Shown: positions 13,967 to 63,875, numbered from the stretch's first letter. The stretch is DNA of 64,000 bases from Minisyncoccota bacterium (GCA_043776915.1 JAYVQT010000003.1:26187-90186); one strand, 5' to 3'. Notes: a model not told the origin generated them from the sequence alone. A program made the numbers and translations.

Positions 13967-15400
13967 TTATTTAAAATTTTTCTTTAATTCCTCCATATCA
14001 TCAAAGTGAGTTTTCAGGCCGTTCACTTCTTGATACTTCTCGTGACCTTTGCCGGCGACGAGTATATAATCCCCTTCTTTAGCAAGTTCAACTCCCTTCT
14101 TTATCGCTTCATGCCGATCAGCTATCACTAATACTTCTTTCCCACCAATTGGATTGATGGAGATACTTTCTAAACCCTTCTTCATATCTGCCAAAATAGC
14201 GAACGGGTCTTCGGTGCGAGGATTGTCGGACGTTAAAATGACAATATCACTCATATCGTAACCAATCCGTGCCATGATCGGTCTTTTCATTTTATCCCGA
14301 TCGCCACCACAACCAAATACTGAAATAACTTTTCCATCTTTTTTCATTTCGAAAATAGTTTTAAGTACATTTTCAAGCGCATCGGGAGTATGCGCATAGT
14401 CGACAATAGCTACTCTATTATCATTACTTTTTACATACTGGAATCGACCTTCGACTGGCTCAAGATTTTTCATCATATCTCGTACTTTTCCTCGATCTTC
14501 ATCAAGAAGGATAGCCGTCGCATAGACAGCAAGCACATTATACGCATTGAATTCACCAATGAGCTTTGTCTCGAACCGTTCATGAAAGCTGGCCTTGGTG
14601 GTAGCTATATCTGGATCTTCTTTTAAACTATAGAAATATTTCTTTGCCTGTGTACTTGAGAGCATATATGCACCATTTGAATCGTCACTATTCGAAAGAA
14701 CAAAGACATCTTCAGTCAGGCTATCAAAAAATACTTTCTTAGCATCACGATAATTCTCAAATGTCTGATGATAATCAAGATGATCTTGTGTTAAATTCGT
14801 AAAAACTCCGCCTGTAAAAAAGAGCCCACTAATCCGCTTCTCGACAACAGCATGTGAGCTTACTTCCATGAAGCAATAGTCACAACCCTCGTCGACCATT
14901 TGCTTAAGTAATTTATTCAAAGTTATCGAGTCAGGAGTCGTTCGCTCGGCATCCATGAGCGTATCATTCACTTTATTCACGATAGTCCCCATCATACCAA
15001 CCCTGTGACCAAGATTACGAAAAAGCTGATGGAGAAGTGTGGTAATAGTAGTCTTACCATTTGTACCCGTCACACCGACGAGCTTTAGCTTCTCTGATGG
15101 ATAATCATAAAACGCACTTGCAAGCTTACCGACCGCATCATGACTATCAGCAACTTTTATATAAGTCACACCCTCTTTGTATTCTTCAAGATCTTTCTGG
15201 TGCACGATAACATGTGCACCATGCTCTATCGCTCGGTCTATATACGTATGACCGTCAAGCAACCTACCCACGAGTGCAATAAATAATGATCCTGCCTGAA
15301 CAGTTTGAGAATTTAACGATAGAGAACTAATAGATATATCAAAATCACCTTTTGTATCTATCATGACTATCTCTTTAATTAATTCCTGGAGGCTTTTCAT
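13967..15400 (-). CDS. murE: UDP-N-acetylmuramoyl-L-alanyl-D-glutamate--2,6-diaminopimelate ligase
   Basis: VGVTGTNGKTT P-loop and a C-terminal DNPR motif, which is characteristic of meso-DAP-adding MurE. Confidence 0.85.
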   Translation of the reverse strand: MKSLQELIKEIVMIDTKGDFDISISSLSLNSQTVQAGSLFIALVGRLLDGHTYIDRAIEHGAHVIVHQKDLEEYKEGVTYIKVADSHDAVGKLASAFYDYPSEKLKLVGVTGTNGKTTITTLLHQLFRNLGHRVGMMGTIVNKVNDTLMDAERTTPDSITLNKLLKQMVDEGCDYCFMEVSSHAVVEKRISGLFFTGGVFTNLTQDHLDYHQTFENYRDAKKVFFDSLTEDVFVLSNSDDSNGAYMLSSTQAKKYFYSLKEDPDIATTKASFHERFETKLIGEFNAYNVLAVYATAILLDEDRGKVRDMMKNLEPVEGRFQYVKSNDNRVAIVDYAHTPDALENVLKTIFEMKKDGKVISVFGCGGDRDKMKRPIMARIGYDMSDIVILTSDNPRTEDPFAILADMKKGLESISINPIGGKEVLVIADRHEAIKKGVELAKEGDYILVAGKGHEKYQEVNGLKTHFDDMEELKKNFK

Positions 15401-54021: not shown

Positions 54022-56322
54022 TTATTCTAGTACTTTGAGTAATACTTCTTCAGGAACCTCTTTTCCGGCCACACGTTTCTGCCATTGACTACGTGGGATA
54101 TTTTGATTAGATTGATTCGTTTGTACAGAAGGACGTGATACTGCCTCCGGTTCAGATTTTGTTTCTACCGGATCAGGTTTCGGCATTGTAACTGATACGT
54201 TGGTATGAACCGTCACATTATGAATTGGCGTCGGCGCCACTGCTTCTGGTTCTGGTTCTGGAATCGGAATTGCCAGGCGCGTAACTGGAATTTCAACTTT
54301 TAGTGGAACTGGTTCTACGGCCGGTACGGGATGAGCTATTGCTTTCATTAAAAGTTCTTTCAGTGATGCTTTCTTATCTTCGGATGCTTCTTTAGTTGGA
54401 AGATGTATCGCGGTAGTATGATGAGACTTTTTTAATGTCGAAAGAGATACTGGAACAGCTGTAGCAGCTTTGACTGGAATTGCCTGTGGTGAAATTTTCG
54501 GCGCTGACTTTTTATGATCATCTTCAATTTTTTCAAGTAAACCTTTTAAAAGTGGCGATGGACCTACATGCTTACGCTCAACTGGCGTATACGTTGGACG
54601 ATTATTTTGTATTGATGCTCGTGGAGCCGAAGAATTGGTAGTTTTATTTTGTGTTTGCGGCAAAGGATTTAGGGGTACTGAACGCGGAGAACTTGTTGGA
54701 TATTTTTGCTGAATTTGTTGGATAGGTTGAGCGTCTCTGATCGGTCGCTGCGATAGAGCGCTCGGGGCTTTTGCTCCAGTATCAGCAAATTCAATACCAA
54801 GCATTGCAAGCGGTGCAGTTGAATTCTTTTCATCTTGGCGAGCTGAACGCGTAGCCACAAAGCCAGTCTGAGGCTTGAGCTCTCCGCTCTTAATCTTAAA
54901 CATACAATCTTTACAATAGACTGGTCGGCCCTCTTTCGGCTCGAATGGCACCATGGTTACTTTACCGCAGTTTGAGCAGTCAGCTTTAAACTTCGCCGCT
55001 TCATCACCAACTTGGAGCATACCGCTCCACTTTGATATTTCATTTTCAACTTCTTCACGGGGTCGAGCATAAAGCGAACGTGACATATCTATAATCTTTT
55101 CTTTGACTCCAGCTGATGGATCAATCGTCATCGGTGGAAGAGTGCTTGCCGAGAATGGTCGACTGGTTACGCCGTCAATCATGAGCTTCAAGTAGACGTG
55201 GTAGTTCGGCAAATTCACTAAGTCTTGCGCCGTAAACTCAGGCTCAAATTCTTTCTCAATAAATTCGGCATCATCGGCACCAACGCGGAAGATAACCATC
55301 GTGCCGACGTTACCAAAAACAGCATCACGGACTGCTGTACCATTTTCATTCGATAGTTGAGCTGTATACTGGTGAGCAATAATTAAATTGAGGCGATACT
55401 TACGAGCCTCAGAGAGAATGTTGGCAAATGAATCGGTCGCGAAGTTCTGGAATTCGTCAACATAGAGATAGAAATCTTTACGCTCATCTTCGGGAATACG
55501 CACGCGCTCCATGGCGGCGAGCTGAATTTTCGTAATAATCATACCTCCAAGAAGTGCTGAGTTATCTTCACCGACGCGCCCTTTTGAAACGTTCACGAGA
55601 AATATCTTCCCTTCGTTCATGATTTTAAATATATCAATCGTCGACTTTGACTGCCCGACAACATTACGAATAATAGATGTTGAGAGGAATTGGCCAACTT
55701 TGTTCTGAATTGGGGCAATGGCTTCATTACGGAATTGCTCACGCCACTGCTCGTACTCATGAACCCAGAAAGCTTTGACCACTGGATCTTTCAAGTTGCC
55801 GATAATCATCTGGCGATAATCTTTGTCGACAAGCAGACGCGGAATACCAAGGAGTGTCGTACCAGGAGTGTCGAGAAGTGCTAAGATAGCATTATTGAGA
55901 ATGTACTCCATACGAGAACTCCAGGCATTGGCCCAAATCTTTGTAAAAATTCCCATCAATCCTGAAGCGACCAAGTGCTTATACTTTGGATCATCGAGCG
56001 CAATGACATTGAATCCGACATTAAAATCAACATCAGCAGGATTAAAGTAGATGACATCTTTGGCACGATGATCAGGAATCAGATGAAGAATTTCTTCCAC
56101 AAGCTCACCGTGCGGATCCACCACACAAACACCCTCGCCATTATTGATATTCTGAACAATCAGATTTGAAAGGAGGACTGACTTACCTGTACCTGACTTT
56201 CCAAGTACATACATATGCTGACGACGATCGCGTCTCTTGATCCCAAAGGCATTCTTGGTGTTACGAAAATTCGTCCGACCGAAGTAAGTGATGTCTCGAT
56301 TTTGTGGGATATCGTTGTTCAT
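54022..56322 (-). CDS. VirD4/TraG-like (type IV coupling protein-like) P-loop ATPase lacking N-terminal TM, with long disordered C-terminal tail containing a CxxC...CxxC zinc ribbon
   Basis: Walker A VLGKSGTGKS and Walker B plus downstream YLYVDEFQNF...NLIIAHQYTAQL, which match the T4CP family pattern. Paralog of 62397-63875. Tail of about 330 aa rich in P/S/T/K. Confidence 0.6.
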   Translation of the reverse strand: MNNDIPQNRDITYFGRTNFRNTKNAFGIKRRDRRQHMYVLGKSGTGKSVLLSNLIVQNINNGEGVCVVDPHGELVEEILHLIPDHRAKDVIYFNPADVDFNVGFNVIALDDPKYKHLVASGLMGIFTKIWANAWSSRMEYILNNAILALLDTPGTTLLGIPRLLVDKDYRQMIIGNLKDPVVKAFWVHEYEQWREQFRNEAIAPIQNKVGQFLSTSIIRNVVGQSKSTIDIFKIMNEGKIFLVNVSKGRVGEDNSALLGGMIITKIQLAAMERVRIPEDERKDFYLYVDEFQNFATDSFANILSEARKYRLNLIIAHQYTAQLSNENGTAVRDAVFGNVGTMVIFRVGADDAEFIEKEFEPEFTAQDLVNLPNYHVYLKLMIDGVTSRPFSASTLPPMTIDPSAGVKEKIIDMSRSLYARPREEVENEISKWSGMLQVGDEAAKFKADCSNCGKVTMVPFEPKEGRPVYCKDCMFKIKSGELKPQTGFVATRSARQDEKNSTAPLAMLGIEFADTGAKAPSALSQRPIRDAQPIQQIQQKYPTSSPRSVPLNPLPQTQNKTTNSSAPRASIQNNRPTYTPVERKHVGPSPLLKGLLEKIEDDHKKSAPKISPQAIPVKAATAVPVSLSTLKKSHHTTAIHLPTKEASEDKKASLKELLMKAIAHPVPAVEPVPLKVEIPVTRLAIPIPEPEPEAVAPTPIHNVTVHTNVSVTMPKPDPVETKSEPEAVSRPSVQTNQSNQNIPRSQWQKRVAGKEVPEEVLLKVLE

Positions 56323-57569: not shown

Positions 57570-57950
57570 TTAATTCACTTCCTGCTGATAACACGACTCG
57601 CAATACACAATATCAGGTCGGTCAGATGCATAGGAGGTCTCGAATTTTTTTTGACATATACCTGAATGCTCATGGTTTTCCTGTGTACACATACATGAAC
57701 GATTAAATAGATTTCTCTCGGGTCTAAATTTAATACGTTTCTCGTAACGACAGTTGGGGCAAAAACGTGGAATAGGAATAACGTGCTCTCTATAGAATTT
57801 CAATTCTTCAGATACAATATTGTAATTCCGCTCACAACCTATACATTTTAGTACCTCACTGGTAATACTATCACTAATATCAAGAATACTATCAATTACA
57901 TTTTCTGGTGCTATGGTTTCTTTTCCTTTTCTTACGGGTATATCATCTTG
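57570..57950 (-). pseudogene. C-terminal portion of a split Cys-rich modular protein gene: in frame with upstream CDS 57951-59261, separated only by a single TAG
   Basis: The 126 codons after the TAG stop of 57951-59261 translate to QDDIPVRKGKETIAPENVIDSILDISDSITSEVLKCIGCERNYNIVSEELKFYREHVIPIPRFCPNCRYEKR...CESCYQQEVN, which is colinear with the C-terminus of paralog 59736-61454. There is no in-frame ATG. The ORF-track 77-aa call begins at a TTG. Confidence 0.5.
57613..57703. repeat. 91-nt segment with 1 mismatch to 59779-59869 (3' ends of the Cys-rich paralog genes)
   Basis: Direct comparison shows 90/91 identical. Flanks are more diverged. Confidence 0.8.
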
Positions 57951-59261
57951 CTATGTAAATCCTCCAGCAAGGGCTTGTTCTTTTGAAAGTGGCATAAATA
58001 TTTGGCCTTGTGTTTCGTTATATCCAAAAGGAGAAAGTAGTGAAGGAAAAAATTCGCCATATTCAGATGTTTTTTTCATATGTTCAATTAATTTATTTTT
58101 GAGTAACTCATACTCATCTTTTTCGTACGGTCTATTTAAAATACAATAATTTGATTTTTTTAACCCAACACAACCAAAAAGATTTTGAGAATTATGGCAT
58201 GAATCACAATATTCAATAAAAATATCGTCCCATGAAAGATGCGAGAACTTAGTATAGGATGAATTAGACATTGCATGAGATTCATAAATCATCATCCCTA
58301 TGCCTACACTAAATATATCCATAGCGTCTTTCACTTCTGCAGTTGCTACTGAATACTTAATAGTATCAGAAGCAAAGATATCAAAATCATTATGACAATT
58401 CTTTGAATTATATATTACATCACCAGAAACATTTACAGACCTTTCTATTTGACCATAGCGATGCAACGCGTTAGTTTTTAACATTTCTTTCCATTGAGCA
58501 TATAGACTACTTCTTGTTTGGAAAGAATCTAAGTTGTATTTTTCCATACGTACCATATATTCTTCTTTTGTGTATTGCGTATTTAAAATACAGTATTTTT
58601 TATTACGCAAATTATATGACATAAAGCAATCTGAACAATTTCTACAATCGTAACAGTATGAGCAATTTATAGAATCATGTGTCAGGAGACAAAACTGACA
58701 ATTATAATCTCTATCGCAAGAAATACATTCATAAAGGAAGGTTCCCTTATCGATAATCATATTGCAATCACATGATTCACTTACATGATTCCAACAATTA
58801 CTTGAATAAAGAACATTCTCACTATTAAAAACATCAAAGCATAAATAACAATTTTTGTTATCTTGGGAATGATTAGTGTATTCACTTTGTATTGAATTTT
58901 TAGATAATAATGCAACACGAGGAACTTTTAATTGTAACTCTAAAAACTGCTCAAAAAATGGGCGAGAAAAATCTATTTCTTGTGCAAAATCTTTTGCATC
59001 CCAACTATCACCCCACCAACAAGCTGAACAATACACTTTAAACGGAGACAGAGGATTATAAATAGTGACAGTTGATTTAGTACATAAATCACAATTCCTT
59101 CGATATAAAGTCCTTTCATTACGCCAAGAATAGCGACGGCGTTGCCTGCAGTCCGGGCAAAATGTCGGTGGTGGTACCTTCATCTTCTCGTAAAAACCGA
59201 AGTCATCCGGTTCGATTGTGAAGTCTTTTTTGCAGTTTTGGCAGGTTTTTGTTTCTTGCAT
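57951..59261 (-). CDS. Cys-rich modular protein (N-terminal zinc ribbon plus internal tandem CxxC-type repeats); N-terminal 436-aa part of a gene split by an in-frame TAG
   Basis: N-terminal CQNCKKDFTIEPDDFGFYEKMKVPPPTFCPDCR. Repeats such as NCWNHVSESCDCN, ECISCDRDYNCQFC and CSYCYDCRNCSDC. The N-terminus is near-identical to paralog 59736-61454. Confidence 0.55.
   Translation of the reverse strand: MQETKTCQNCKKDFTIEPDDFGFYEKMKVPPPTFCPDCRQRRRYSWRNERTLYRRNCDLCTKSTVTIYNPLSPFKVYCSACWWGDSWDAKDFAQEIDFSRPFFEQFLELQLKVPRVALLSKNSIQSEYTNHSQDNKNCYLCFDVFNSENVLYSSNCWNHVSESCDCNMIIDKGTFLYECISCDRDYNCQFCLLTHDSINCSYCYDCRNCSDCFMSYNLRNKKYCILNTQYTKEEYMVRMEKYNLDSFQTRSSLYAQWKEMLKTNALHRYGQIERSVNVSGDVIYNSKNCHNDFDIFASDTIKYSVATAEVKDAMDIFSVGIGMMIYESHAMSNSSYTKFSHLSWDDIFIEYCDSCHNSQNLFGCVGLKKSNYCILNRPYEKDEYELLKNKLIEHMKKTSEYGEFFPSLLSPFGYNETQGQIFMPLSKEQALAGGFT
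59164..59244. repeat. 81-nt segment identical to 61360-61440 (5' ends of the two Cys-rich paralog genes)
   Basis: Character-by-character comparison shows 81/81 identical. Confidence 0.85.
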
Positions 59262-59318
59262 AAAATTATGTGTATGATATACTTTAGTAGTAAATGCTTC
59301 TCTTGTCAGAAGCTCCGA

Positions 59319-59345
59319 GAAAACCCCGAAAGGGGTTTTTGTTTT
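59319..59345. terminator. Hairpin terminator gaaaacccc gaaa ggggttttt
   Basis: 9-bp stem immediately downstream (on the minus strand) of the MazF-like gene stop. Confidence 0.5.
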
Positions 59346-59721
59346 ATATTATAAGACGTATCTTTTCTTTTAATCTATTTAATTCAGTTGATTCTACCTT
59401 TCCTACAAAACGTAGCAATCTTTTAGCATCAAATAATCGTACTTGCGAAAGTATAACGGTAGATCTATGAAATGATTCTAATGTAAAATAATATTTACCA
59501 ATCTTCGGCTGGCTCGTCAGAGGCACACCCATAAATATATGGTTGTTAAATTTTCTGGTAATCAAAACAGGTCTTTCAAAATTCTTATTTTTTCCATCTT
59601 CTTCATCTCCAATATTTTTACCCATATGTAAAAACCACACTTCTCCTTTACCAAAGAAAATTCTCTCATTCATTGAAATTTTCTTTTTTAAACTATTCCA
59701 TATGTCAAAATCTTCTTTCAT
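59344..59721 (-). CDS. PemK/MazF-like toxin-fold protein (putative)
   Basis: GEVWFLHMGKNIGDEEDGKNKNFERPVLITRKF...FMGVPLTSQPK resembles the MazF/PemK pattern (G.vw.v.f....G.E..k.RPvlv....VvPlTs). Start set at the internal Met to avoid overlap with the upstream gene. Confidence 0.45.
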   Translation of the reverse strand: MKEDFDIWNSLKKKISMNERIFFGKGEVWFLHMGKNIGDEEDGKNKNFERPVLITRKFNNHIFMGVPLTSQPKIGKYYFTLESFHRSTVILSQVRLFDAKRLLRFVGKVESTELNRLKEKIRLII

Positions 59722-59735
59722 ATTCAAATTATAAT

Positions 59736-61454
59736 CTAATTCACCTCTTTTTGATAACAACTTTCGCAATAAATAATTTCAGGTCGGTCAGATGCATAGG
59801 AGGTCTCGAATTTGTTTTGACATATACCTGAATGCTCATGGTTTTCCTGTGTACACATACATGAACGATGGAAAAGTTTTGGTTGATTTATAAATTGTAG
59901 GCGATTAAGAAATCTACAATTATGACAAGTATGAGGAAGTGGTAATCCTACACGTTGATAAAACTGCAACTCTGCTGGTATGATACGATATGCACGTTTA
60001 CAATTCTCACACGCAATTACTTCTTTTGTAATATCATCAGAAACATCTTGCAACAAATCAGGTACACCTGAACCATCTAATGTTGTCTGAAATTCTTTTG
60101 CACTTGGTTCACGCCATGTAAACCCTTGATCAAGGGCTTCTTCTTTACGTATTGGTACATAATCTTGTGCCAAACTCTCATTGTAAGCCAAAGGTGAAAA
60201 AGAAAATGGGAAAAAGTCGCCATATGTATACACTCTCCCTTGTTCATCGACATACGGCATATCTTTCATATGTTGTATTATTTTAGGAACAAGTATTTCG
60301 TATTCTTCTTTTGAATATTGTTTATTTAAAATACAATATTTATTCTTCTTCATACTTACACATCCAAAACAATATGACGTACCAAAACAATACCCACAAT
60401 ACTCTATCTCACGAACATTACCGAATGAATTAAAACAACATTTTAGTCCATATGCTCCATCTCCACAAGTCATACACTCGTATGCATTTTCTATATTCAT
60501 AAAAAGCTGACAGGAGTCATATGAATTTGCTGCTTTTAATACACTAATCTGTACATATCGTAGATTCTCGCCATTTTCAACAGAAAAGGAATCACGTACA
60601 TTTTTTGAATCACTAATTCTATCACCGGTACAATTAAGATTTCGCGTACCATGATAATATTTAACTGGGAACTGTTGCCAAAACTCCAAAACTTTTTCTC
60701 GAATATGCACGATGGATTGGTATGAAGATAGATTCATCTCAAATATCCTTCTCTCATATTCTTCTTTAGAAAGTGGTTCATTGAAAAAATAGTATGATTT
60801 ACCACGAAGATTTACACACCCGAAACAATTCGTACAACCACGAAGTCCTTTACTAAACCACACATCTACACAACTTTCACAATCAACAGAAAAGAACGTC
60901 TGGTACGACTTATATACCATGACACATTCGTAGCACAATTCATCATCTATTAATTCATGAGAATCAAATGAATTTTTTACATTAGTAACTTTTACAAGAT
61001 ACGCCGAGTCTTCGATAAAATCTGCATCGAAACACAAATATGCATTTTTAAGTCTCCCTGCCTCATTGCAGTAGTCAGAATTAATCATAAACCCAGCAGA
61101 AGACTTTGCCATAATAGGTACTCTCTTAAACAATTCCAAAAATTGCTCAAAAAACGGCCGTGAAAAATCATACTCTACACCATACTCTAACGCATCCCAC
61201 TCATCACTATACCAATATGTTGTTTCGTATGTTTGTATTGATGATTCAGGAGGAATACCTGAAAATGAATCCTTCCCAGTATGAGCATCTGTTCTACGAA
61301 AAAGATTACGTTCGTTTCTCCATGCTAATCGACGTACCATCCGACACTCTGGACACCACGTCGGTGGTGGTACCTTCATCTTCTCGTAAAAACCGAAGTC
61401 ATCCGGTTCGATTGTGAAGTCTTTTTTGCAGTTTTGGCAGTTGCGGGTTTCCAT
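59736..61454 (-). CDS. Cys-rich modular protein, intact 572-aa paralog (zinc-ribbon module at both ends, internal CxxC repeats, duplicated KYCILN.QYSKEEYE segments)
   Basis: N-terminal CQNCKKDFTIEPDDFGFYEKMKVPPPTWCPECR and C-terminal CENCKRAYRIIPAELQFYQRVGLPLPHTCHNCR...SCMCTQENHEHSGICQ...CESCYQKEVN. Confidence 0.6.
   Translation of the reverse strand: METRNCQNCKKDFTIEPDDFGFYEKMKVPPPTWCPECRMVRRLAWRNERNLFRRTDAHTGKDSFSGIPPESSIQTYETTYWYSDEWDALEYGVEYDFSRPFFEQFLELFKRVPIMAKSSAGFMINSDYCNEAGRLKNAYLCFDADFIEDSAYLVKVTNVKNSFDSHELIDDELCYECVMVYKSYQTFFSVDCESCVDVWFSKGLRGCTNCFGCVNLRGKSYYFFNEPLSKEEYERRIFEMNLSSYQSIVHIREKVLEFWQQFPVKYYHGTRNLNCTGDRISDSKNVRDSFSVENGENLRYVQISVLKAANSYDSCQLFMNIENAYECMTCGDGAYGLKCCFNSFGNVREIEYCGYCFGTSYCFGCVSMKKNKYCILNKQYSKEEYEILVPKIIQHMKDMPYVDEQGRVYTYGDFFPFSFSPLAYNESLAQDYVPIRKEEALDQGFTWREPSAKEFQTTLDGSGVPDLLQDVSDDITKEVIACENCKRAYRIIPAELQFYQRVGLPLPHTCHNCRFLNRLQFINQPKLFHRSCMCTQENHEHSGICQNKFETSYASDRPEIIYCESCYQKEVN
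59779..59869. repeat. 91-nt segment with 1 mismatch to 57613-57703
   Basis: See partner copy. Confidence 0.8.
61360..61440. repeat. 81-nt segment identical to 59164-59244
   Basis: See partner copy. Confidence 0.85.
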
Positions 61455-61455
61455 A

Positions 61456-61941
61456 TTATTTAATCAATTGAGTAAACTGATCGAGTTGTCGACTTTTAAT
61501 AGTACTTTGTATAAAACCAAGGGTTGTTTGTAATTCTTTAATGGTATTTTGGTTTGATTCTGCGAGACGTTTTTGATTCAATACATACCCTTTGATTACA
61601 TAGTGGCGAAGCGTTTTTGTAGCCCATTGTCGAAAAATAATTGCCTTGCTTGAATTTGTTTTATATCCCACAGCCAGAACAACATCCAGAGAATATAGTG
61701 AAACTGGTTTATCTGAATTTGCAATGTGCATTTTTTGCACATTGTTTTTTGTATCAACTTCTTTTGATCTCAAGAGATTATGTATATGTTTAGTGATAAC
61801 TGAACGCTCAATGCCAAAAAGCTGAGCAATTTGGATTTGTGTTGCCCAAATAGTTTCCTTTGAAATATCAGCGTGAAATTCGATATTCCCTTTTTTGTCT
61901 TTATAGATAGCGAGGTTATTTTTTAAATCATTTTTAGTCAT
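61456..61941 (-). CDS. RhuM-family protein (virulence-protein RhuM / Fic-DOC-associated family)
   Basis: KGNIEFHADISKETIWATQIQIAQLFGIERSVITKHIHNL matches the RhuM family N-terminal core. Confidence 0.55.
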   Translation of the reverse strand: MTKNDLKNNLAIYKDKKGNIEFHADISKETIWATQIQIAQLFGIERSVITKHIHNLLRSKEVDTKNNVQKMHIANSDKPVSLYSLDVVLAVGYKTNSSKAIIFRQWATKTLRHYVIKGYVLNQKRLAESNQNTIKELQTTLGFIQSTIKSRQLDQFTQLIK

Positions 61942-62396: not shown

Positions 62397-63875
62397 TTAA
62401 ATAAGGGGTTCACTGTTTTTTTCTTCTATGGCTACTAGATTTGTAAATTCATCGTTTGTCGAATTAGTATTTCGAGTAATGGCCGCTTTCTCTTGAGCTG
62501 AGCGAATAATGGTCGACTCTTCTTCGGCAATGAGCTTCTGAGCTTCACCGGCTGGAATAGCGTACTGGCGACGAGAAGCTTCGATAATGCGTGTACGATA
62601 TGAGGGGTGAGTTGCTGGAAGCACACGCAATGTCTCCGCTGAGAATGGGTCATAGCTTTCACCATCAATCGTCATCTTAATATAAAATTCTCCCACTCCA
62701 AGATTGATCATATCTTTGACATCAAAGATCGGTGCGAACTCTGGCTTGAGCTTGACTGCATCGTCACCACCGACACGGAATGAGATAATCGAACCAATGT
62801 TTCCAAGTACTGCTTGCTGAACTTTCGGCAAAAGCTGACCGACATACTGGTGAGCTACAATCAGATTCAGTCCATACTTACGGGCCTCTGACAAAATATT
62901 CTCAAACGTATCAGTCACGATGTTCTGGAACTCATCGACGTACAAATAAAAGTCAGCACGATCTTTCGGCTCAAGCTTGGCGCGTGCCATACCGGCTTGC
63001 TTGATCTTAGTCAAGAACATGGCTCCAAAGAACGATGAATTCTCTTCACCAATTTTTCCTTTCGAGAGATTGATGAGCAAAATTTTCTGTTGATTCATGA
63101 GCACTTCGATATCAATCTTATTCTGCTTCTGGCCGAAAATATTACGGAGCATCGGATCAGACAAGAATTGCCCGAGCTTGTTTACAAGCGGAATGATCGC
63201 ATCAGTATCGAACTTCTCGGACCAGTCGGCGAATTCGATAGCCCAGAATCGTTTGACCATGTCGTCCTCAATATACTCGACAACTTTCTGACGATAGTTA
63301 CGGTCGGTCAGCATAGAGATCATACCGCGCATCGTCGCGTATGGATAGTCGAGAAGCGCAAGGACGGTGAAGCGAAAGACGTGCTCCAAGCGTGGCGTCC
63401 AGTTTGCACCGAACTGCTTACGCAACACTTCGATTAAGCCTTGGGTTAGTTGGTGCTTAAATGTCGGGTCAATATTAGCAAGTGGATTAAATGATGACGG
63501 AAAGTCAACATCACCCGGATCAATAATGCAGACGTCATTAATACGATCTTCGGGAATAAAATTCAAGATGTCATCGATCAGTTCACCATGAGGATCAATA
63601 ATACAAACACCTTGACCGTATGCAATATCTTGACGAATCATCAACTCTTGGAGTTTCGATTTACCTACGCCAGACTTACCGATAATATACATGTGTCGTC
63701 TACGATCAACACGCTTGATACCAAAAACGAATTTCTTTTCTTCAAGTGAAGCTACGTAATTCGTCCGACCGATAAAGCAGACTTCGGCAGGATCAGACTG
63801 ACCAAGAGTTGGTAAATCTGGTGGAGGTGGAGCGTACTTTATGATTTGAATTTTATTTGGTTTGTTGAGCGCCAT
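62397..63875 (-). CDS. VirD4/TraG-like (T4CP-like) P-loop ATPase, paralog of 54022-56322, lacking the C-terminal tail
   Basis: IIGKSGVGKS Walker A and YLYVDEFQNIVTDTFENILSEARKYGLNLIVAHQYVGQL. High identity blocks with the other copy throughout the ATPase core. Confidence 0.6.
   Translation of the reverse strand: MALNKPNKIQIIKYAPPPPDLPTLGQSDPAEVCFIGRTNYVASLEEKKFVFGIKRVDRRRHMYIIGKSGVGKSKLQELMIRQDIAYGQGVCIIDPHGELIDDILNFIPEDRINDVCIIDPGDVDFPSSFNPLANIDPTFKHQLTQGLIEVLRKQFGANWTPRLEHVFRFTVLALLDYPYATMRGMISMLTDRNYRQKVVEYIEDDMVKRFWAIEFADWSEKFDTDAIIPLVNKLGQFLSDPMLRNIFGQKQNKIDIEVLMNQQKILLINLSKGKIGEENSSFFGAMFLTKIKQAGMARAKLEPKDRADFYLYVDEFQNIVTDTFENILSEARKYGLNLIVAHQYVGQLLPKVQQAVLGNIGSIISFRVGGDDAVKLKPEFAPIFDVKDMINLGVGEFYIKMTIDGESYDPFSAETLRVLPATHPSYRTRIIEASRRQYAIPAGEAQKLIAEEESTIIRSAQEKAAITRNTNSTNDEFTNLVAIEEKNSEPLI

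Follow-up and report, generated by a model that had tools for sequence, protein, structure and literature searches.

Two cysteine-rich paralogs with near-identical ends

The DNA analysed here (the window) is a 64,000-nucleotide (nt) stretch from a Minisyncoccota bacterium (GCA_043776915.1, JAYVQT010000003.1:26187-90186), and our subject is a pair of neighbouring cysteine-rich genes on its minus strand, paralogs A and B, which have two short and nearly identical tracts of DNA in common, one at either end of the gene. Paralog B (59736–61454) is intact, with 572 codons (572 amino acids, aa), and is laid out as a zinc-finger pair at each end with two beta-solenoid-like repeats in the centre. Paralog A (57570–59261) has a B-like architecture and one in-frame TAG. 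Its 5' part (57951–59261, minus strand) comprises 436 codons and ends at this TAG (57951–57953), while its 3' part (57570–57950, minus strand) lies in frame past the TAG, carries the C-terminal zinc-finger pair and aligns with residues 448–572 of B. Over the whole gene the two paralogs are 44–47% identical in protein and 56% identical in DNA, values that fall to 36% and 49%, respectively, in the centre (residues 60–500). The protein is duplicated internally: its N-terminal module is similar to its C-terminal one (E = 1e-14 to 2e-17), and so are the two halves of the centre to each other (E = 2.7e-7). The second N-terminal finger has lost its cysteines in B-type proteins and keeps them in A.

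Cysteine accounts for about 6% of the residues in these proteins. Their N terminus is a CxxC finger and not a signal peptide, and neither A nor B contains a signal peptide or a hydrophobic or transmembrane segment (maximal 19-residue hydropathy of 0.94 and 0.81). The most reasonable reading of the sequence is a predicted intracellular (cytoplasmic) metal-binding protein. The end modules, with their visible CxxC...CxxC spacing, resemble treble-clef zinc fingers; this is a resemblance rather than a demonstrated membership, with scores of 18.5 bits for zf_Tbcl (PF13451) and 17.9 bits for zf_Tbcl_2 (PF23477) that lie under the Pfam gathering cut-offs of 24 and 27, respectively.

The N-terminal tract falls in the first N-terminal finger, where it spans 81 nt and codons 7–33 (CQNCKKDFTIEPDDFGFYEKMKVPPPT), at 59164–59244 in A and 61360–61440 in B. 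The C-terminal tract falls in the last C-terminal cysteine module and spans 91 nt (RSCMCTQENHEHSGICQ[K/N]KFETSYASDRP), at 57613–57703 in A and 59779–59869 in B; all four copies lie on the minus strand. An earlier examination of this DNA, made from its letters alone (the sequence-only reading), had described the first pair as identical, the second as differing at a single position and the remainder of the two genes as far more diverged. Direct comparison reproduces this picture in full, with matches at 81/81 and 90/91 positions and with the overall and central DNA identities given above. The lone mismatch of the C-terminal tract lies at 57648 (T in A, G in B) and amounts, on the coding strand, to Lys versus Asn. 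A repeat scan of the region from 56.5 to 62.5 kilobases shows just two long direct repeats, with the tract pairs at their cores: the N-terminal tract sits in a 158-nt block (59098–59255 and 61294–61451) and the C-terminal tract in a 202-nt block (57571–57772 and 59737–59938), each with 78% identity. Chance is excluded as the source of the 81-nt run. When matching and mismatching sites were shuffled (10,000 shuffles), the longest run had a mean of 11 and a maximum of 24, and when codon pairs were shuffled among positions with identical amino acids (5,000 shuffles) it had a mean of 22 and a maximum of 59.

Synonymous sites and nearest relatives point to gene conversion

The homogenisation of A and B can be seen directly at synonymous sites. 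Where the two proteins have identical amino acids, the same codon is used at 50/51 positions inside the blocks versus 92/182 outside. All synonymous sites of the N-terminal tract are identical between the paralogs, and so are the codons at 26/26 identical amino acids in the C-terminal tract (residues 529–560). The genes also supply an internal control, in that the 13-aa stretch DFSRPFFEQFLEL is identical in the A and B proteins while its DNA differs at 7/39 nt (32/39 the same). Since synonymous sites are homogenised only in the blocks and have diverged in this control, the identity is not explained by selection on the protein.

A second direct observation is the discordance between tracts and flanks. 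In both blocks, each of the two window genes is nearest to the other window gene, with nt identities of 95% and 94%. In the centre, by contrast, B is nearest to its orthologue L004 (79.5% nt) and A to L024_7779, a gene of another genome (57% nt); handles of this kind denote related loci and their genes. Against its syntenic orthologue in L001 (g1), B is 77% identical in nt overall and 63% in the C-terminal block, which is the strongest departure of B from this orthologue and the place where B and A are 98% identical. In the same block A and B have derived residues in common, reading N-K-FETSY-A-S-DRP against a family consensus of N-E-FETSY-A-P-DRP, that is, K for E and S for P. Both also carry a long version of the C-terminal module, where most B orthologues have a short one.

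It is very probable, in our judgement, that the identity of the tracts reflects recent gene conversion between A and B. The sequence-only reading had left the choice between recent conversion and recent duplication; the codons, the discordance and the derived residues favour the former, and the latter is set aside below, since the orthologue groups of A and B are old and distinct. Its further proposal, that recombination between the copies is restricted to the module ends, gains support from the homogenised synonymous sites and from the discordance.

Exact runs recur at the gene ends in other genomes

We then compared paralogs across the family, using 101 within-genome pairs from 39 loci and 3,469 between-genome pairs. 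Exact runs of at least 50 nt were found directly in four genomes among the 101 within-genome pairs, namely those of the window, L011, L009 and L018. The window pair has runs of 81 and 55 nt. Locus L011 has one of 104 nt at the C-terminal end with one partner and one of 56 nt at the N-terminal end with another partner, and L009 and L018 have a run of 65 nt each. All of these runs lie within about 150 nt of one end of the gene. In between-genome pairs at paralog-level divergence, exact runs never exceed 35 nt.

The nearest-neighbour relationships show the same preference for the ends. For 23/66 genes in the N-terminal block and 21/64 in the C-terminal block, the nearest neighbour is a gene of the same genome, compared with 7/67 in the centre and 6/67 in the first C-terminal finger. 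In L011 and L041, moreover, the paralogs have genome-specific C-terminal variants in common. The loci that show this recurrence are independent assemblies made with different assemblers, and the presence of similar runs in them argues against an artefact peculiar to this contig.

Several points weigh against gene conversion as we have described it. Throughout the family, similarity within genomes exceeds similarity between genomes in every region, the centre included, and shared codon usage presumably explains part of this general signal. As the similarity comparison is thus confounded, we rely on the long exact runs and on the nearest-neighbour contrast, both of which are specific to the ends. 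Scans of metagenome contigs returned 0 matches to the exact 81-nt block, and 0 matches to a degenerate back-translation of the C-terminal block peptide CTQENHEHSGICQ, and strain-level relatives were looked for and not found. Lastly, the direction of transfer is read only from the likeness of orthologues to the blocks, at small margins.

Proposed mechanism and direction of transfer

To begin, homologous recombination requires a match of some tens of bases, and mismatches stop it. In the mechanism that we infer, the two short stretches would have become identical through non-reciprocal homologous recombination (ectopic gene conversion) between A and B. Its restriction to the gene ends could arise if strand invasion is seeded, and heteroduplex tolerated, only where the paralogs are still similar enough in DNA, as they are at the ends. 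In the N-terminal block, even genes of unrelated genomes retain about 70% identity and exact runs of 20–35 nt, while the centre, at about 49% DNA identity, would present a barrier to recombination. Each conversion event would also renew the similarity that permits the next one.

The direction of transfer may have been from B to A, followed by mutation in A. This is weakly suggested by two features: both blocks are closest to B-clade orthologues (71/81 positions for the N-terminal block; L008 and L040 for the C-terminal block), and at the single mismatch A has Lys, against Asn in B and in the family consensus.

The restriction to the ends might also, or instead, stem from selection if the end modules have a partner in common. 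The modules might stay identical since all copies dock to one shared, genome-specific partner, an idea that we regard as speculative and unlikely; the candidate may be the pair of orphan T4CP/VirD4-like ATPases (T4CP, type IV coupling protein) that flank the array, one of which bears a zinc finger of the same type. Were this true, the beta-solenoid centres would be the variable part and the array a set of diversified substrates or adaptors of a Patescibacteria-specific machine, and conversion at the ends would be retained by selection and not merely allowed by sequence similarity.

Alternative explanations of the identity

Gene conversion has to be weighed against explanations that need no recombination. 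Strong selection could in principle hold the tracts constant, whether its target is the protein or a nucleotide element embedded in the gene (for example an RNA structure, or a regulatory site common to both copies), and the N-terminal finger is indeed the most conserved part of the family in protein and retains about 70% DNA identity even between paralogs of different genomes. However, protein-level selection leaves synonymous sites unfixed, the codon counts inside and outside the blocks differ sharply, and the identical 13-aa stretch elsewhere in the gene has diverged in DNA. The orthologues, too, differ: the best match to the N-terminal block outside the window, the B orthologue L005, has 71/81 positions, so that at least 10 differ, and no relative matches the C-terminal block at more than 62/91. 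Between genomes, the fraction of identical amino acids with the same codon is 0.50 in the N-terminal block, close to the 0.44 of the centre, and an Rfam search at the tracts gave no match. The between-genome codon fractions and the differing orthologues thus give no sign of a conserved embedded nucleotide element, and we hold selection without recombination to be highly improbable. A tandem duplication of recent date, with very rapid divergence since then in all but the ends, would suit two neighbours of the same strand and architecture, yet it fares still worse. The centres are far too different for it, and each gene has its own lineage of relatives. Orthologues of the A type, 53–64% identical and covering 99–100% of A's read-through protein, occur in many Patescibacteria lineages (the best, P0122, at 64%), and B has its own at 70–83% (the best at 81–83%). 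The two genes fall in different clusters, G14 for A and G1 for B, and in relatives the slot beside B holds other paralog types. Membership of A and B in separate old orthologue groups excludes a recent duplication, and we accordingly give this history almost no credence. An artefact of assembly or polishing, in which reads of the two paralogs were merged in their most similar stretches to yield a falsely identical consensus, is a rival that we consider improbable. In its favour, the contig was assembled from a metagenome, no part of the genes is more conserved than the blocks and polishing is most prone to mis-map reads in such stretches, and the metagenome scans for the blocks turned up no related contigs. 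Nevertheless, typical reads are longer than the blocks (81 and 91 nt), which have unique in-frame flanks on both sides, end-located exact runs of 56–104 nt are present also in the independent assemblies L011, L009 and L018, and the C-terminal protein variants common to the paralogs of L011 and of L041 extend beyond any single exact run.

A further possibility accepts recombination and gives it a different role. In a programmed system of variation (a contingency or cassette locus), recombination would use the identical ends as handles to exchange centres and so create diversity within the population. The combination of conserved ends with diverse centres resembles cassette systems, and the centres are of many types (53 clusters among 86 genes). 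Relatives form tandem arrays of 2–7 copies, sometimes at more than one locus per genome, and the order and composition of the paralogs vary among related species; arrays of 3–7 members are found at L001, L006, L009, L012, L015, L027 and L036. In cluster terms, the order is G1-G37-G2 in L001, x-G2-G1 in L006, L009 and L012, and G1-G14 in the window. B stands first in the arrays of L001 and the window and last in those of L006, L009 and L012. Against programmed variation, the proteins have no signal peptide or membrane segment and their zinc-finger-like ends suggest an intracellular product, there are no simple-sequence repeats at the locus, and no inverted repeats that are long (>27 nt) or near-perfect, as expected for an invertible switch, were present. 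All copies are full-length genes, with no silent promoterless cassettes among them. The centre of B is also collinear with that of its L001 orthologue: before the C-terminal block every 60-nt window is 55–86% identical in nt (mostly 73–86%), with no mosaic. We therefore regard programmed variation as very unlikely, and the suggestion of a contingency or variable-surface locus made in the sequence-only reading is not supported, for want of an export signal, simple repeats or cassettes and in view of the collinear centre. Its idea of shuffling survives in part; it finds indirect support on an evolutionary time scale, in the arrays that differ in order and composition among genomes, though not as contingency shuffling. 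Recombination between conserved ends could contribute to this slow turnover of arrays.

The in-frame TAG of paralog A

The description of A as a TAG-split copy proved correct. The TAG at 57951–57953 is codon 437 of A, and the frame runs on for 126 codons past it to a TAA at 57570–57572. It aligns with the TGG codon of Trp447 in B, a residue that is invariant in an alignment of 63 sequences, and in gene orientation it sits 248 nt upstream of the C-terminal tract and more than 1.2 kilobases downstream of the N-terminal tract. The sequence-only reading had also suggested that recombination could have created the split. This is not supported, because B carries TGG at the homologous codon, so that conversion from B did not introduce the TAG, and the TAG is remote from both tracts. 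On the comparison with B, the change is readily accounted for as an independent and simple G-to-A nonsense change (TGG to TAG).

Apart from its stop, A is only mildly deviant, differing at 10/98 strongly conserved columns (family median 5, maximum 29) and mostly by conservative changes, and this implies that the break is recent, or is an error or a polymorphism. A would thus be a copy broken not long ago, a variant due to sequencing or to the strain, or a gene for a truncated protein. Reassignment or programmed read-through of TAG was considered and found no support, TAG being an ordinary stop that ends 12 of the 48 long open reading frames (ORFs) of the window, that of B included; TAA ends 34 and TGA 2. 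Read with the standard bacterial code, these long ORFs stay unbroken and nothing points to recoding, and no suppressor tRNA is present among the 5 tRNAs in the window. An in-frame stop is present, too, in a B-type orthologue in L014 (848–2527, about 73% identical); it falls 7 codons downstream of the position that corresponds to the TAG of A, and this orthologue has Cys in place of the invariant Trp. The stop in L014 could be a coincidence, or the linker that precedes the C-terminal module could be a place where a break is tolerated. We entertained truncation near Trp447 as a recurrent natural form of the protein and dropped it, the few database proteins that end at 435–450 being scattered and perhaps cut at contig ends.

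Comparison with known systems

Gene conversion between paralogs is an ordinary, textbook process, encountered here in a large uncharacterised family. The classic case of concerted evolution by RecA-dependent gene conversion is that of tufA and tufB in Salmonella and Escherichia coli. As in the tuf genes, non-reciprocal transfer within a genome homogenises synonymous sites, and the converted DNA groups by genome and not by orthologue. Unlike the tuf copies, which are near-identical over their full length, A and B are old, their centres are only about 49% identical and conversion is confined to two end tracts of 81–91 nt. The same layout is seen in outer-membrane protein paralogs of Helicobacter pylori such as babA and babB, which combine conserved 5' and 3' ends with divergent middles and undergo gene conversion between loci; both systems have homogenised ends, divergent centres and recurrent events in different lineages. 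However, the bab genes encode surface adhesins, in which conversion changes the phenotype in populations, whereas A and B have no export signals and appear cytoplasmic, and the centre of B is stable among orthologues. In the cassette systems of antigenic variation, Neisseria pilE/pilS and Borrelia vlsE, short conserved segments likewise flank variable ones and act as recombination substrates, but the A/B locus has neither silent promoterless cassettes nor a surface product or hypervariable expressed site.

Within Patescibacteria, tandem and highly divergent arrays of VirB2 pilins have been described (PMC12102498). The A/B array is similar in consisting of at least two divergent tandem paralogs in the same phylum, and it lies between T4CP/VirD4-like ATPase genes; it differs in that its family consists of 570-aa cysteine-rich proteins, of which that study makes no mention.

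The locus provides a clean and well-controlled example of concerted evolution in Patescibacteria. For annotators and assemblers, the exact stretches of 50–100 nt that members of the family have in common at both ends are of practical concern, as they can break or mis-join short-read assemblies and can mislead phylogenies built from whole genes. The locus is also a pointer to a family that is very large and still unannotated, fills an appreciable part of the very small genomes that carry it and often lies between orphan T4CP-like ATPase genes.

The gene family and its neighbourhood

A and B each have more than 7,900 database relatives. Those that are named all belong to Patescibacteria (Nomurabacteria, Staskawiczbacteria, Liptonbacteria, Paceibacterota and others), and the family appears to be confined to this phylum. 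An exhaustive search gave 3,696 family clusters at 50% identity, of which 1,469 reach E <= 1e-30, with proteins of 550–600 aa in nearly all cases. The orthologue group of B is the best conserved of the family. Sequence searches of Pfam, NCBIfam and PDB with A and B returned no relative or family, and our literature searches turned up neither an account of the family nor a report of gene conversion, whether in its members or in Patescibacteria at large.

Two orphan T4CP/VirD4-like ATPase genes bracket the array, both in the window (54022–56322 and 62397–63875, each on the minus strand) and in about 15 related loci. The 766-aa T4CP-like ATPase has a clear zf_Tbcl_2 finger at residues 445–476 (E = 6e-14) and a long Pro/Gln-rich tail. 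Orphan T4CP genes have been reported as common in Patescibacteria (PMC12102498).

Upstream of B lies a truncated ORF of the RhuM family (61456–61941, minus strand; Pfam PF13310, profile positions 9–76 of 252 only), which ends 1 nt before the B start codon and has no match in any related locus. Because it is absent from the syntenic loci of relatives, it is probably the remnant of an inserted element. Between B and A is an ORF for a PemK/MazF-like toxin (59344–59769, minus strand; Pfam PF02452, E = 3.2e-10), with a likely ATG at 59720 and no visible antitoxin gene. In L041, a related PemK (14324–14719; phmmer E = 9.5e-21) sits immediately upstream of a gene of the family. We considered a link between PemK and the family and did not retain it, since the two are neighbours in only 2 of about 40 loci (the window and L041) and PemK is absent from the other 38 or so. 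A G+C-rich hairpin at 59319–59340, between the PemK stop and the start of A, looks like a terminator.

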